Of a stretch of 10,057 bases of DNA, positions 4,896-9,562 are shown one piece after another. The DNA lies in UHGV virus genome UHGV-1651400; one strand, written 5' to 3'. The notes beneath the pieces are model-generated. The model was given only the letters and a program-made list of their open reading frames with translations. It searched no databases and was not told where the DNA came from. The stretch is from a virus. Numbering within the stretch: position 1 is the first letter of the stretch; every line of letters begins with the position of its first letter. A program made the position numbers and the translations under genes.

Positions 4896-7800
4896 TTAAA
4901 CTCCCTTGATTAATCGCCACAGAGGCGAGCCCGGCATGCTGGCCTGCTCGTTAATAACGCCAGTGATGGCATCTTTCAATTGTCTGCCAGCGGCACCGGC
5001 TGTTCCCTGACTGGCCGCCTGGGATGATCCGCCCTGAATATTGATATCGCCAAAGTTAACTGAAGGCACGCCACCAGAAACCTGCGGCATCCCCACTGCG
5101 CGAACGGCAAGATCACCATTAGGTGCCCGCGTGAGGGGCATGATTGCTTCAGGACCTGCCTCGCCGAAAATCCCTGCGCCTTTAGCAAAAGCAAACAGTT
5201 GAGGTGTCTGAAAAACGCCATTGCTGTAAGCGCTCAGGGACGGAGAGTCGTAAACATTACCCTTTGCATTAAAGGTAAAGTTCGCGCCAGCATTCTGAAT
5301 AGCGGTACCGCTGCTGGCGGTTGCGGCTGACGAGGCACCAAAACTGAACAGTGATCCAATTGAGCTGACGCCATTAGCAACAGCCATGTTCACCAGAACG
5401 TTCTGGATAATCTTCAGTACGCTCACGCCCCAGTCCTTCCAGCTGTCAACGTTGCCATTGAGCATGTCGGTGATCGTGGTGACCGCGCCACCCATGGCCT
5501 GCTTCATGCCGTCAGCGGCCATGGAAGAATAATCAGTAGCTTCGTCCACCCAGTTCGCATAACCCTCAGACAGTCCCGTCATCCAGTCGTCACGCTGCGC
5601 ATCAGAAGCTGCGTAATATCCCTCCTGGTCGCGCAGGCGCTCTTCGAGGTAGCGCTTATTAAGTGCCAGCCCCTGCTGATAGAACGTCTCGTCGATTTCA
5701 CCAGCCTGACGCTGGCGGAGAAGATCGGTATTCTTCTGCTCGAACTCCTTACGCAGATTGAACTGCTCCTGAAGTCTTTCACGGAACCTGGTTCCCTGCC
5801 CGTATCCCAGCAGTTGCGCTTCATTGGCTGCGCGGGCGCTGGCGTTACTGTCGGCAAGGTTGGCTTCGTAATTTCGCAGTTGCTCACGTAATTTAACCTG
5901 GTCAATCAGCGTAGCATTCTGCAATACCGTCTTTTTCTGGGCTTCTGTCAGAGAAGCAAGTTCGCCCTGGCTGACCTGGTATTTAACCTTCGCCAGTTCA
6001 GTATTCTGGCCTTGCAGGGCAATCTGCTCTTTTTGCTGTTTGATCAGCTTGTCATAGGCATCAGCTGTTTTTTCCGCCTCGGATTTCCCGCCCTTATGGC
6101 GGCTTGAGTCACGAATAGCTTGCAACTGCCTGGCTGACTCAACTTCCATGCTGACATACTTCTCACGCCAACCAGCAGGGAGATTAAGGTCAGATGCATC
6201 GAATTCCGCCTGCTTGCGGGTTTTGTCCAATCCCTTAAGACCGGACAACTCAAGCTGTCGCTGCGCCTTGTCTATAGCTTGCTGCTGCTTATTATCAAGT
6301 GCAGGAAGTACAGGCCCTGCATATTTTGGTGGGGACACTGCTGTAGACTGTCTGGAAACCTTGTTCAGACGGTCATACATCTCTGTAAGAGAACTTACGG
6401 CGCCAGCCATTTCTACTGTTTTATTTATAGCCTGATCAGTTATGTCGTTTATTAACTGTTGTGTTTGCTTTCTTTTATTGAGCATTTGCTCAAGTCGGCC
6501 TTCTTCAACCGCAAGTTCTGAAGCAAACTCTGCTGCTTTCTCAACCGCATCGTTATACAGCCATGTTCCCTCTGAAGCAGAATTGGCTGCTAATTTTGCG
6601 TTATAAAGTTGATTGGATAATTCAGCAACTTTCTGCTTCTGCTGTTCAATCGCACTATTTTGAGCATCCAGTGAAATATTCGCCTGTCCAAGGTTGGCGG
6701 ATATCTGCGTCTGAGACATTGATTTCAGATTATCTCGTACCTGCTCGATTGTGTCCGCATATTGGATTGCAGATTCCCTGGCTTGTTCTTGGCGTTGATA
6801 CATCATGTACCACGCCCCAGCACCCAACATTAAAATTCCTGGCAAACCACCAACTAACGACAAAAGCCCCGTAGCGCCAGACTTGAATAAATTCATTACC
6901 GATGTTGATCGGTTGAGTGCTTCTTGCGACGCTGATACTGCTTTATTTGACTGAACGAGAGTGGCATTGGCGGCTATCATTTCGCGCCGTTTGGCAATAG
7001 AATTTTGTGTAGCTGTCGCTTCTGCATTTGTGTTTTTTGCAAGTTCCAACTCGGATAGCGAGAGCTGATAAGCACGCTCGGCAGCAATCGCATCTGCTGC
7101 CGCCTTTCGTTGTGATTGGGTAGCAGATTCAGCCCTTGCAGATGCGAGCGCAATTTCGTTCTTTCTGGCATCTATTAATTGCGCCGTTTGGTTCCCAAGA
7201 TCGCCAAACATCCCTCCAAGATAGCGAGCTCCACCTATTGCAGCCAAAGCTCCGGCAGCCGTAGCCACAGTGTCGATATTGTCAGAAACTGTATTCAATA
7301 CAGCAACAAGAGCACTTGTCGCACCAGTAGCTTCATTAGCTCCACCTACCCATGCCATGAAAGCATTTTCGACTTTCGTCGTGGCAGCAGAAACGGTCTG
7401 CGGCATTGCCTCAAATTCACCACGCATAGTGCCAAGTTGACTTATCAGGGCCGGGACAACTTTATCTGCGGTTAGCATCCCCTGATCGGCCATTGCCTTC
7501 AGATCTTTACGAGCTACACCCATCCCAGCGGCCAGCGCACGGATAACTCGATCACCGTTTTCGTTAACAGAGTTGAATTCCTCGCCCCGCAGAACGCCCT
7601 GAGCTAATGCCTGACTAAACTGGGTGATAACAGAACTTGCCTCTGCCGTGCTGGCGCCGGATAGCTTTAGTCCAGTAGAAATGGCCTCGGTTACATCCAG
7701 AACTTGCTGCGAACTGTATCCGTATTCACGCATTGATGCGGCGGAACGCGCAAAAAGACTCGCATTATCAGAGAAGGCGGTTCCGGTTCGTTGGCTAATA

Positions 7801-8162
7801 TCCATCAGCGCCCGCTGAGACTCCGTGAAATCATCAGACGATTGGGAAGCCTGCTTTAGCCTGGCATTAACAGAGCTCCATTCATCGGCCAGCGATATAA
7901 GATGACCAGTCGCAAATGCTCCAGCAAATGCACCTGCCATTCCCAGCGCTGAGGCCTTCGCGGTGTTTATTTGACTAGTTACCTCAGCTAAGGCACGCTG
8001 AGTTTCACGCGAAGCTGCGGCCGCTTGGCGTCCTCCAGTCTGCATTACCCGGTAATAGTCATTCCCCATTCTTGAAGCACGAGAAATTTCAGACTGAAAT
8101 GACTGAGAGTTTGCAGATATTTTGATGATCAGTTCGCGCAACGTAGCCATATTTTCACCCAT
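4896..8162 (-). CDS. H: Tail tape measure protein (lambda gpH analogue), 1088 aa
   Basis: Single very long ORF sitting between the G/T chaperone pair and M. Ala/Gln/Glu-rich, predicted helical/coiled-coil, with an internal hydrophobic segment (LLSLVGGLPGILMLGAGAWYMMY) and a Gly-rich C-terminal region. An alternative start at ATG 8150..8148 is preceded by GGTGA; the first ATG at 8162 abuts a U8 tract. Confidence 0.9.
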   Translation of the reverse strand: MGENMATLRELIIKISANSQSFQSEISRASRMGNDYYRVMQTGGRQAAAASRETQRALAEVTSQINTAKASALGMAGAFAGAFATGHLISLADEWSSVNARLKQASQSSDDFTESQRALMDISQRTGTAFSDNASLFARSAASMREYGYSSQQVLDVTEAISTGLKLSGASTAEASSVITQFSQALAQGVLRGEEFNSVNENGDRVIRALAAGMGVARKDLKAMADQGMLTADKVVPALISQLGTMRGEFEAMPQTVSAATTKVENAFMAWVGGANEATGATSALVAVLNTVSDNIDTVATAAGALAAIGGARYLGGMFGDLGNQTAQLIDARKNEIALASARAESATQSQRKAAADAIAAERAYQLSLSELELAKNTNAEATATQNSIAKRREMIAANATLVQSNKAVSASQEALNRSTSVMNLFKSGATGLLSLVGGLPGILMLGAGAWYMMYQRQEQARESAIQYADTIEQVRDNLKSMSQTQISANLGQANISLDAQNSAIEQQKQKVAELSNQLYNAKLAANSASEGTWLYNDAVEKAAEFASELAVEEGRLEQMLNKRKQTQQLINDITDQAINKTVEMAGAVSSLTEMYDRLNKVSRQSTAVSPPKYAGPVLPALDNKQQQAIDKAQRQLELSGLKGLDKTRKQAEFDASDLNLPAGWREKYVSMEVESARQLQAIRDSSRHKGGKSEAEKTADAYDKLIKQQKEQIALQGQNTELAKVKYQVSQGELASLTEAQKKTVLQNATLIDQVKLREQLRNYEANLADSNASARAANEAQLLGYGQGTRFRERLQEQFNLRKEFEQKNTDLLRQRQAGEIDETFYQQGLALNKRYLEERLRDQEGYYAASDAQRDDWMTGLSEGYANWVDEATDYSSMAADGMKQAMGGAVTTITDMLNGNVDSWKDWGVSVLKIIQNVLVNMAVANGVSSIGSLFSFGASSAATASSGTAIQNAGANFTFNAKGNVYDSPSLSAYSNGVFQTPQLFAFAKGAGIFGEAGPEAIMPLTRAPNGDLAVRAVGMPQVSGGVPSVNFGDINIQGGSSQAASQGTAGAAGRQLKDAITGVINEQASMPGSPLWRLIKGV

Positions 8163-8186
8163 AAAAAAAACCCGCTTGATAGCGGG
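8163..8186 (-). terminator. Intrinsic terminator downstream of the small membrane-protein ORF (minus-strand RNA: CCCGCU-AUCA-AGCGGG followed by UUUUUUUU)
   Basis: Seen in sequence: plus strand 8163-8170 AAAAAAAA, 8171-8176 CCCGCT, loop 8177-8180 TGAT, 8181-8186 AGCGGG. On the minus strand this is a perfect 6-bp GC-rich stem followed directly by eight U, then the H ATG. Confidence 0.65.
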
Positions 8187-8193
8187 TCGTGAG

Positions 8194-8382
8194 TTATAAA
8201 CTGTCTTTTCTTTTGTGAGCGACTTGTATTAATAAATCTATTTGCGCATCTTGTTTTTTATTTATCTCTTTAAGGGCTTCAACTTGTTCATTTGCCCTTG
8301 TGCTAAACCGTATTACATAAAAAATCACAATTAGATTTATCAACCAGCCGAATATTCCAAACACTACTACCAGTGGTTCCAT
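8194..8382 (-). CDS. Hypothetical small single-pass membrane protein (62 aa), candidate moron
   Basis: ATG 8382..8380 is preceded by a strong Shine-Dalgarno (AAAAGGAGG, 4-nt spacer). Product MEPLVVVFGIFGWLINLIVIFYVIRFSTRANEQVEALKEINKKQDAQIDLLIQVAHKRKDSL has an N-terminal hydrophobic helix and a charged amphipathic C-terminus. DNA is visibly AT-rich relative to flanking tail genes and is followed by a terminator. No homolog recognised from memory. Confidence 0.55.
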   Translation of the reverse strand: MEPLVVVFGIFGWLINLIVIFYVIRFSTRANEQVEALKEINKKQDAQIDLLIQVAHKRKDSL

Positions 8383-8439: not shown

Positions 8440-8718
8440 TTATTGTGTCGCAGCTGTTAGCGCCGCTTCAAGCCCTGCAAACGGGTCATTCGGTTCTGAT
8501 TGCTCCTCACCACCCCAGCGCAGGATCGCATCGTCCAGCGGTACTTTTGCCCCCTGCGAACCGTAGATGGCAGAGACGATCTGGGCGGCCTGAATGTCAC
8601 CGCGAATATCGCCAACCGGACTTTGCCTGTCGTACTCAATCCACATCAGAAGCTCGCTTGCCGTCATATTCTGCCGAAGCTCTGAGAGCGTGCGCCCCAT
8701 CCGGAGCGCAAGCGACAT
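8440..8718 (-). CDS. T: Tail assembly protein T domain, expected to be expressed as a G-T fusion via -1 frameshift
   Basis: -1 frame relative to G. Product (MSLALRMGRTLSELRQNMTASELLMWIEYDRQSPVGDIRGDIQAAQI...) has the character of the phage minor-tail-protein T family. No Shine-Dalgarno before ATG 8718. The T frame is open upstream to a TGA at 8781..8779, so it overlaps the last ~17 codons of G. Confidence 0.78.
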   Translation of the reverse strand: MSLALRMGRTLSELRQNMTASELLMWIEYDRQSPVGDIRGDIQAAQIVSAIYGSQGAKVPLDDAILRWGGEEQSEPNDPFAGLEAALTAATQ

Positions 8719-8726
8719 CAGAAACT

Positions 8727-9110
8727 TTACGCCGGGGGTTGAGACTTTTCCCGCGCTTCGTCCGCGTTGTTGATCAGGTCAAGCGCCTGTTTGAGCAGGC
8801 GTGAATGGACGGGGCCGTAGATTTCACGCACCTGCTCTTCTTCGTCTACGCTGAATACCGGTTGCTTATCGGTGTCGCACAGGACGTCAATGAAGAGCAC
8901 CACGTCAGCGCAAAGATTACGGTGTGCCTTTTCCGATACCGACACATTTTCATCATCAGCACCCGCTTTCACCACCTCCTGCCAGCGCAGCCAGGCTTCT
9001 CCAGACGGCTCACGGAGAACCACTTTGACGCCTTCCCACTCAGGAACGGCGACCATCTTATGACGAAATCCCGACATCTTAGCCAGGGCGAGATTTTTAA
9101 TATTCTTCAT
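8727..9110 (-). CDS. G: Tail assembly chaperone (lambda gpG analogue)
   Basis: 127-aa acidic ORF directly downstream of the major tail protein gene and overlapped at its 3' end by the -1 frame T ORF. Shine-Dalgarno GAGAGG about 5 nt before ATG 9110. Assignment is positional and architectural; no sequence similarity to lambda gpG recognised. Confidence 0.65.
   Translation of the reverse strand: MKNIKNLALAKMSGFRHKMVAVPEWEGVKVVLREPSGEAWLRWQEVVKAGADDENVSVSEKAHRNLCADVVLFIDVLCDTDKQPVFSVDEEEQVREIYGPVHSRLLKQALDLINNADEAREKSQPPA
8745..8752 (-). other. Candidate programmed -1 ribosomal frameshift site (GGGAAAAG on the minus strand) within the G/T overlap
   Basis: Minus strand 8756->8727 reads GCG CGG GAA AAG TCT CAA CCC CCG GCG TAA in the G frame; the -1 (T) frame reads GCG GGA AAA GTC. 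The register differs from lambda's canonical G GGA AAG, so the exact slip position is uncertain; a CCCCC run at 8738-8734 is an alternative. Confidence 0.4.
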
Positions 9111-9118
9111 GCGACCTC

Positions 9119-9562
9119 TCAGGAGCCAGACTCGATGTTTTCAGGCTTACCTTTCAGGCGCAGGGAGAACGTTGCCGCCACTACGCCGTTGGTACCTGAA
9201 GACCAGGTGTGCTGGCGGATTTCAGCCAGGAACTTAAAGCCCTTGCCGGACGGGAAGATAACCTGGAAAGCGTAGGTCGTATCGTTGTCATAGGCCTCAC
9301 GCAAGGCGTCCTGCGCCGGATTCTTGTAGAAGTTGCCGGACAGAGAGATTTCTGACGGAGAAGGCAGGCCGTTGATGTTCTCCTGCTCGGTAGAGCAAAG
9401 TGTTGTTACGTCGATATCCTGCTTCTGACCACCGGTGAACTGAATTTCTTTGATGGTGCAACTCAGATCGAGGAAGGTTGCGGAATCCATCGTTTCTTTG
9501 GTAGCTGGCAGGGAGGAAATAAGGATCTTCGTCAGCTGCGATTTTTCATAAAGTGCAGACAT
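9119..9562 (-). CDS. Major tail (tube) protein, short form without a C-terminal Ig-like extension
   Basis: 147-aa ORF immediately upstream of the G/T pair. Strong Shine-Dalgarno (CAGGAGA, ~6 nt spacer). Not recognisably similar to lambda gpV from memory and markedly shorter; the call rests on position and size. Confidence 0.7.
   Translation of the reverse strand: MSALYEKSQLTKILISSLPATKETMDSATFLDLSCTIKEIQFTGGQKQDIDVTTLCSTEQENINGLPSPSEISLSGNFYKNPAQDALREAYDNDTTYAFQVIFPSGKGFKFLAEIRQHTWSSGTNGVVAATFSLRLKGKPENIESGS

Follow-up and report, generated by a model that had tools for sequence, protein, structure and literature searches.

A near-canonical −1 frameshift site predicted to join tail chaperone genes G and T in an HK97-like prophage

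Introduction

The heptamer G_GGA_AAG is the experimentally established shift site of phage lambda, in which it is phased TCT GCG GGA AAG TGT (NC_001416). A ratio of 30:1 has been quoted for lambda in a review (PMC5009743). In E. coli, no tetramer is more prone to shifting than A_AAG, and G_GGA_AAG ranks with the best heptamers (PMC4066793). The tetramer is shifty because AAG is read by a single tRNA-Lys (mnm5s2UUU), whose pairing is poor with this codon but perfect with AAA (PMC4066793, PMC5009743). According to Sharma et al., sites made up of the tetramer only require a strong stimulator (PMC4066793). Sites intermediate between hexanucleotides and heptanucleotides, including the "G_GA" type, have been recognised in the review of Atkins et al. 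(PMC5009743).

The closest described system to the locus studied here is the gp13/gp14 pair of phage HK97 (AF069529, AAF31103/AAF31104). For this phage, GenBank lists gene 14 as a CDS in two pieces that begins at the start of gene 13 and carries the remark "translated due to a -1 frameshift". HK97 may also, reportedly, be among the five phages tested by Xu, Hendrix and Duda in 2004. For HK97-like tail chaperone cassettes, 6–7% frameshifting was obtained with an E. coli reporter, in relatives chosen for A-rich heptamers and not for G_GAA_AAG (PMC3711429). A text search of the literature for GGAAAAG or "GAA AAG" together with frameshifting returned nothing relevant.

We investigated the corresponding locus in a 10,057-nucleotide stretch of viral DNA (UHGV-1651400), referred to below as the window. 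An earlier note on this DNA had proposed a programmed −1 frameshift between G and T, and had suggested that the shift site and mechanism may differ from those of lambda.

Results

The window is the tail module of an HK97-like prophage, with the genes discussed here all on the minus strand, in the order tail tube, G, −1 T frame, gp15-like ORF and tape measure. The tail tube (major tail) protein gene (9119–9562; Pfam Phage_TTP_11, Phage_tail_3 and Phage_tail_2) lies directly upstream of G, the slot taken by the major tail subunit genes in HK97-like phages. The G gene (8727–9110, with a TAA stop at 8729–8727) encodes a zero-frame tail assembly chaperone of 127 aa, identified from the ORF and its translation, that matched Pfam Phage_TAC_1 (PF06222; E = 4.9e-59, 198 bits against a cutoff of 25) and the HK97 tail assembly chaperone structure (PDB 2OB9; E = 1.4e-72). 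The T reading frame, −1 relative to G, spans 8440–8778; it is open from 8778, after a TGA, to a stop at 8442–8440, and it matched Phage_tail_T (PF06223; E = 3.4e-20, 72.7 bits against a cutoff of 25.9). The 1088-aa tape measure protein gene (4896–8162; Pfam TMP_3, Phage_HK97_TLTM and Tape_meas_lam_C) encodes what is presumed, by analogy, to be the partner bound by the G domain. As in the lambda paradigm for G and G-T, an overlapping pair of ORFs sits between the tail tube and tape measure genes, and T lies in the −1 frame across the 3′ end of G without start signals of its own. The two Pfam domains and these neighbours agree with the G-T frameshift layout that the earlier note had described.

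By megablast, the G/T region was 93–96% identical at the nucleotide level to HK97, HK75, HK633, mEpX1, AsXd-1, LAU1 and SaltyDalty, and the nearest genome and virome loci were Enterobacter prophages with protein identities of 98–100%. T and the tape measure gene are separated, just as they are in HK97, by a 62-aa ORF (8194–8382; MEPLVVVFGIFGWLINLIVIFYVIRFS...) with an AGGAGG Shine-Dalgarno sequence and a YebO-like Pfam match. This ORF is identical at 58/62 positions to HK97 gp15, which is annotated there as a "moron product", and it is followed downstream by a terminator-like hairpin and T-run at 8169–8188 on the same strand.

In the G frame, the end of G reads GAC GAA GCG CGG GAA AAG TCT CAA CCC CCG GCG TAA, and contains GGGAAAAG at 8752–8745 and CCCCC at 8738–8734. 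The register of the slippery heptamer G_GAA_AAG (8745–8751) was read directly and gives GAA (8750–8748) as the P-site codon and AAG (8747–8745) as the A-site codon; after a −1 slip the codons are GGA and AAA. The coordinates and the phasing as CGG GAA AAG, unlike the G GGA AAG of lambda, were as first described when compared with NC_001416. The −1 frame had been put as open across the last 17 or so codons of G; it is indeed open, and the G/T overlap measures 49 nt, or 16 codons plus 1 nt. Within the 20 nt upstream of the T-frame ATG at 8718 (AACCCCCGGCGTAAAGTTTCTG-ATG) no GGAG- or AGGA-type Shine-Dalgarno sequence was present, consistent with the view that T lacks its own ribosome-binding site. 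The heptamer departs from the canonical X_XXY_YYZ pattern in that A_AAG is canonical and G_GAA has one mismatch, and the same holds for HK97. This departure is real, yet it is no ground for excluding the site from the G/G-T family.

GGAAAAG was observed three times in the window against 1.55 expected. The heptamer by itself is no more than chance, and its significance is carried by conservation. A second in-frame G_GAA_AAG occurs within G at 8934–8928 (codons Glu60-Lys61), where a −1 slip leads to a stop after three codons; if the heptamer alone were shifty, some truncated G would be expected from this internal copy.

Comparison with HK97 was carried out by aligning 141 nt around the overlap in the window, HK97, AsXd-1, SaltyDalty and LAU1. 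All bases were identical from the Asp codon GAC (8762) to past the T-frame ATG, and the G/T overlap of HK97 is thus the same base for base. HK97 gp13 (the protein of PDB 2OB9) is 91% identical to the window G, and HK97 shares the gene order, including the small ORF before the tape measure gene. The differences are scattered substitutions outside the overlap, a window G that is one residue shorter at the N-terminus, and a tail tube protein that is not of the HK97 gp12 type but of the short one (147 aa) known from AsXd-1, LAU1 and SaltyDalty.

Three fusion models of HK97 were used for an exact-sequence lookup: AREK|VSTPG (slip on GAA-AAG), AR|GKVSTPG (one codon earlier) and AREKSQP|PGVK (slip on the C run). 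Only the AREK|VSTPG model is deposited (AAF31104.1 / NP_037707.1; junction ...AREK|VSTPGVKFLM), and the other two had no exact match in the same protein collection. The HK97 annotators therefore placed the shift on the GAA-AAG heptamer. Both domains and the HK97 shift site and junction are found in the window, which makes its locus a member of the gp13/gp14 group. The window site is the HK97 site, and as such it is already annotated and adds no new kind of mechanism.

Comparison with lambda showed that its T frame, C-G-K-V-FDGELS-FALKLAREMGR, aligns without gaps with A-G-K-V-STPGVK-FLMSLALRMGR of the window. The window heptamer is therefore the positional homologue of the lambda site. The two heptamers differ by one base (GGGAAAG in lambda and GGAAAAG here), which changes Gly to Glu in the G frame and is silent in the T frame (GGG to GGA). 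Shared with lambda are the location between the tail tube and tape measure genes, the −1 direction, the AAG to AAA change at the A site, the post-shift G-K-V, the Pfam family of the T domain and the spacing to the F.(L/M)..LA(L/R).MGR motif. At the P site, lambda GGA re-pairs perfectly, whereas GAA to GGA in the window leaves a G.U pair in the middle position. The G proteins of lambda and the window fall into separate TAC Pfam families, and by eye they cannot be aligned. Given the homologous position, the same A-site slip and the single base of difference, the suggestion of a possible departure from lambda in site and mechanism was overstated.

Conservation within the HK97 clade was assessed in 93 loci picked by a downstream anchor that excluded the heptamer, a comparison of the kind that the earlier note had put forward as a check. 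The last 12 codons of G occurred as 12 haplotypes in these loci, and all seven heptamer bases were invariant (7/7). The flanking codons vary: GAC/GAA/GAT/GGC, GAA/GAC/GAT, GCG/GCA and CGG/CAG before the site, and TCT/TCG, CAA/CTA, CCG/CTG/CCA and GCG/GCA/GGG after it. The variant with CGG changed to CAG (L020) still has G as the first heptamer base. The internal copy (8934–8928) served as a control in the same genomes, where it drifts through TCG/TCT/TCA, GAA/GAG and AAG/AAA or encodes Glu-Arg. Since it varies synonymously, the internal copy is not under selection as a shift site. In one variant (L021), the T frame opens just 28 nt before the G stop, which narrows the permissible window to the equivalent of 8756–8730, and within that interval G_GAA_AAG is the sole conserved slippery motif. 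Substitutions between the heptamer and the G stop were of six types, split 3:3 between T-frame-synonymous and G-frame-synonymous, so that the switch point is not locatable from them.

The survey was extended to 16 phage relatives (G identity from 98% to 27%) and 70 species-level genome loci, the latter found from an alignment of the enterobacterial subset. For each relative, we determined where G stops, how far the −1 frame extends and how the sequence is phased. Interpretable sequence was obtained for 67/70 genome loci; two with disrupted genes and one pseudogene were left out. In Leclercia adecarboxylata (L024), Serratia sp. L9 (L057) and Ca. Symbiopectobacterium (L061) the frames are broken, with a −1 frame lacking a T domain or a shifted G, and these are probably decaying prophages.

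Every interpretable locus (67/67) contained an in-frame A_AAG, and the T-frame L-A-L-R codons (LALR.G motif) follow it 35 or 38 nt downstream. The codon before AAG was AAA in 42, GAA in 10, GCA in nine, GGA in five and GTA in one. As full heptamers, A_AAA_AAG was found at 42 loci, G_GAA_AAG at eight, A_GCA_AAG and G_GGA_AAG at five each, G_GCA_AAG at four, A_GAA_AAG at two and G_GTA_AAG at one. The post-shift peptide was kept at fixed spacing as (G/K/S/R)-K-(V/A)-x-x-P-x-x-x-F-(L/M)-M-x-L-A-L-R-x-G. At eight loci (L027, L029, L043, L054, L062, L084, L086 and L087) and in the phages Evi, FSL SP-016, VIPKPNMC05 and Kp4872-1, the overlap of the two frames is limited to 7 nt. In these 12 relatives, heptamer position 1 is also the start of the open T frame, and G terminates directly after position 7, leaving no other place for the shift there.

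In a neighbour-joining tree of G-T proteins, G_GAA_AAG appeared in two separate clades, the HK97 group and a group formed by ENT39118, L038 and L051 in which the flanks differ (GTG GAA AAG CCG TAA). The variant therefore arose or was retained more than once.

RNA elements that could stimulate the shift were sought on both sides of the site. The 121 nt around it folded no better than shuffled sequence (z = +0.51), the 60 nt on its 3′ side gave z = −1.22 with 22/200 shuffles at least as good, and Rfam returned no match at E ≤ 1. Among the 93 HK97-clade loci there was no conserved purine-rich element that could act as a Shine-Dalgarno-like upstream stimulator, and the upstream codons vary. A pairing of CCCCCGG with CCGG-AU-GGGG, 6 nt after the site, was rejected, having no covariation support and being weakened in variants L143 and L145.

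A 7-bp GC hairpin, GCGCUCC-GGAU-GGGGCGC, was also seen at 8710–8691 on the minus strand, 35 nt 3′ of the heptamer within the T codons for A-L-R-M-G-R. Its codon choice is unusually uniform (CTC 57/85, GGG 65/85, GCG 71/85, and also CGC). Covariation in the hairpin is weak, with 75% of cells paired, two pairs with double changes and similar values in slid controls, and the hairpin is lost in Gly-Lys variants. At 35 nt it is too distant, and its covariation too weak, for a conventional stimulator, and it was rejected as such.

Discussion

These comparisons indicate that a programmed −1 ribosomal shift at G_GAA_AAG very probably joins G and T. A small fraction of ribosomes translating G would slip back one base at 8751–8745 and go on in the T frame, yielding a 223-aa G-T protein (...DEAREK-VSTPGVKFLMSLALRMGRT...) with the junction peptide ...DEAREKVSTPGVKF. 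In the model built here, the predicted fusion is encoded by 8440–9110 and consists of G residues 1–122 (...NNADEAREK) followed by the T-frame sequence ending in ...TAATQ. Ribosomes that do not slip would terminate at 8729–8727 and give the 127-aa G. Ribosomes would then read the T frame solely from 8745 on, as the C-terminal part of G-T. In the essential step, tRNA-Lys, a single E. coli-type species with the anticodon mnm5s2UUU, would exchange AAG for the overlapping AAA. Peptidyl-tRNA-Glu would most likely move along with it from GAA to GGA, keeping Watson-Crick pairs at the outer two codon positions (1 and 3), with a G.U pair (G opposite U35) between them. If the proteins act as in lambda, the tape measure protein would be bound by G and by the G part of G-T, and the tail tube protein would be recruited by the T part. 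The sequence comparisons show the frames, the domain identities, the match to HK97 and the position and conservation of the site; from these we infer the occurrence and efficiency of slippage, the P-site re-pairing and the protein functions.

Two of the options raised in the earlier note, tRNA-Glu re-pairing from GAA to GGA and slippage on the A-AAG lysine codon alone, fall on the best-supported site and differ in what happens at the P site. If only the A-site tRNA-Lys slipped on A_AAG and tRNA-Glu stayed, the G before GAA would be irrelevant. Relatives with A_GCA_AAG, G_GCA_AAG, G_GTA_AAG or A_GAA_AAG at the same position, in which P-site re-pairing is impossible or minimal, argue for such a reading, and single-tRNA slippage on A_AAG is documented in IS1222 (G_CGA_AAG; PMC5009743) and Bacillus cdd (A_CGA_AAG; PMC10861913). 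Speaking against it, a stop codon directly follows AAG at 12/12 loci with a non-re-pairing P site (GCA, GTA, A_GAA) but at 0/8 G_GAA_AAG and 0/5 G_GGA_AAG loci (Fisher p = 0.003 when compared with all others, 8e-6 when compared with G_GAA_AAG; neither value allows for phylogeny, and the non-re-pairing cases fall in about 5–6 lineages). An adjacent stop codon is a classical promoter of P-site slippage ("shifty stops"), and the pattern suggests stop-assisted single-tRNA slippage in the non-re-pairing relatives. G_GAA_AAG shares its stop pattern with G_GGA_AAG and so behaves as a member of the canonical heptamer class. Of the 10 GAA loci, eight have G directly before this codon, and the L020 variant retains that G. 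Tetramers are barely shifty without a strong stimulator (PMC4066793), and since none was found here, low efficiency would be expected if the P-site tRNA did not re-pair. Slippage of the A-site tRNA alone is the main alternative, possible although rather doubtful, and we lean somewhat towards tandem slippage with a tolerated G.U pair. The adjacent-stop pattern and the preceding G suggest that G_GAA_AAG works as a true heptamer and not as a bare tetramer. The site is most likely a near-canonical tandem-slip heptamer, one base from that of lambda. Loci recorded as non-re-pairing were L009, L011, L028, L037, L039, L042, L043, L046, L047, L052, L060, L062, L065 and L076; each of them has the G stop codon right behind AAG, and several have frames that overlap by 7 nt alone.

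The other explanations place the event elsewhere or dispense with a ribosomal shift. A third option of the earlier note, the C run, would have tRNA-Pro move from CCG to CCC on A_CCC_CCG (8739–8733), giving ...AREKSQPPGVKFLM with the junction ...AREKSQPPGVKF. The run is inside the overlap, C_CCG permits A-site re-pairing, and C_CC.N tetramers are weakly shifty in E. coli, but C_CCG reached just 1.8–3.6 fold over background even with a pseudoknot (PMC4066793). Among HK97-clade variants, L145 and L167 have a broken run (CCC CTG) and L143 an altered one (CCC CCA) while G_GAA_AAG never varies, in most relatives G ends before any such run, and among deposited proteins the corresponding fusion model is absent and the AREK|V model present. 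Not being conserved, the C run was rejected as the shift site, and a shift there has a very remote chance of being correct. Independent initiation of T at ATG 8718, as a 92-aa protein and with no frameshift, would agree with the automatic calls of "phage tail assembly protein T / DUF4035" in hundreds of genomes and several phage records. It is nevertheless highly improbable: this ATG has no Shine-Dalgarno sequence, the T-frame peptide K-V-x-x-P-G-x-x-F-L upstream of it is conserved family-wide at fixed spacing, the Met is replaced in L040 and L045 (FLL), KS9 (LEL) and L084 (FFKL), and the HK97 authors annotated the fusion. RNA polymerase slippage on the A run, producing a −1 subpopulation of mRNA, could be imagined from relatives with 8–9 consecutive A (Evi, GTT AAA AAA AAG), a length that can support realignment (PMC3711429). 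The window, however, has four A (8749–8746) against the seven or more linked to such slippage, and the family invariant is the phased A_AAG and not run length, which leaves polymerase slippage with a close to negligible probability.

Among known single-tRNA sites, those of IS1222 and Bacillus subtilis cdd also rely on shifty tRNA-Lys on A_AAG, but their CGA P-site codons cannot re-pair, whereas GAA in the window keeps two Watson-Crick pairs plus G.U; IS1222 in addition has a downstream stimulator (PMC5009743). Set against the hexanucleotide class, whose sites usually have help from a 3′ stimulator or a neighbouring stop codon, the window has A_AAG, a GAA codon that can partly re-pair as GGA, no adjacent stop and no significant 3′ structure; the relatives with GCA or GTA do belong to that class. 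The same departure from the canonical heptamer, a match at position 1 and a mismatch at position 2 for the P-site tRNA, is known from the eukaryotic "G_GA" heptamers (G_GAU_UUU-like) of insect-specific flaviviruses, dianthoviruses, umbraviruses and mesoniviruses (PMC5009743). Those sites work on eukaryotic ribosomes, with a UUU A-site codon and strong RNA stimulators, and are unrelated to the window.

Annotations of this prophage should list G and a G-T fusion with its junction at 8745 instead of a pair of separate genes. In databases, a stand-alone T of 92 aa ("DUF4035 / tail assembly protein T") has been called in hundreds of entries. Public annotation of the G/T locus is inconsistent, with the fusion CDS missing from most genomes, and in one 90% protein cluster, G proteins of 128 aa and the HK97 fusion of 224 aa are grouped with "T / DUF4035" calls of 92 aa.

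What is added to the HK97 annotation is modest, namely that A_AAG is invariant, that the P-site codon is non-canonical in about 30% of lineages, and that an adjacent stop accompanies codons unable to re-pair. It is conceivable, although unlikely, that only A_AAG is obligatory in the HK97-type family and that the G:G-T ratio is tuned by swaps of the P-site codon (AAA, GGA, GAA, GCA, GTA) and by a stop after AAG. If so, G_GAA_AAG would represent a tandem-slip heptamer of bacteria at which a G.U pair in the middle of the P-site codon is tolerated with no help from an RNA stimulator; alternatively, an unrecognised stimulator may contribute, for which the GC hairpin at 8710–8691, acting from afar, is a candidate. 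The family constitutes a natural series of P-site codons before an invariant A_AAG, and this series could be used to measure the separate contributions of P-site re-pairing and an adjacent stop in bacteria.
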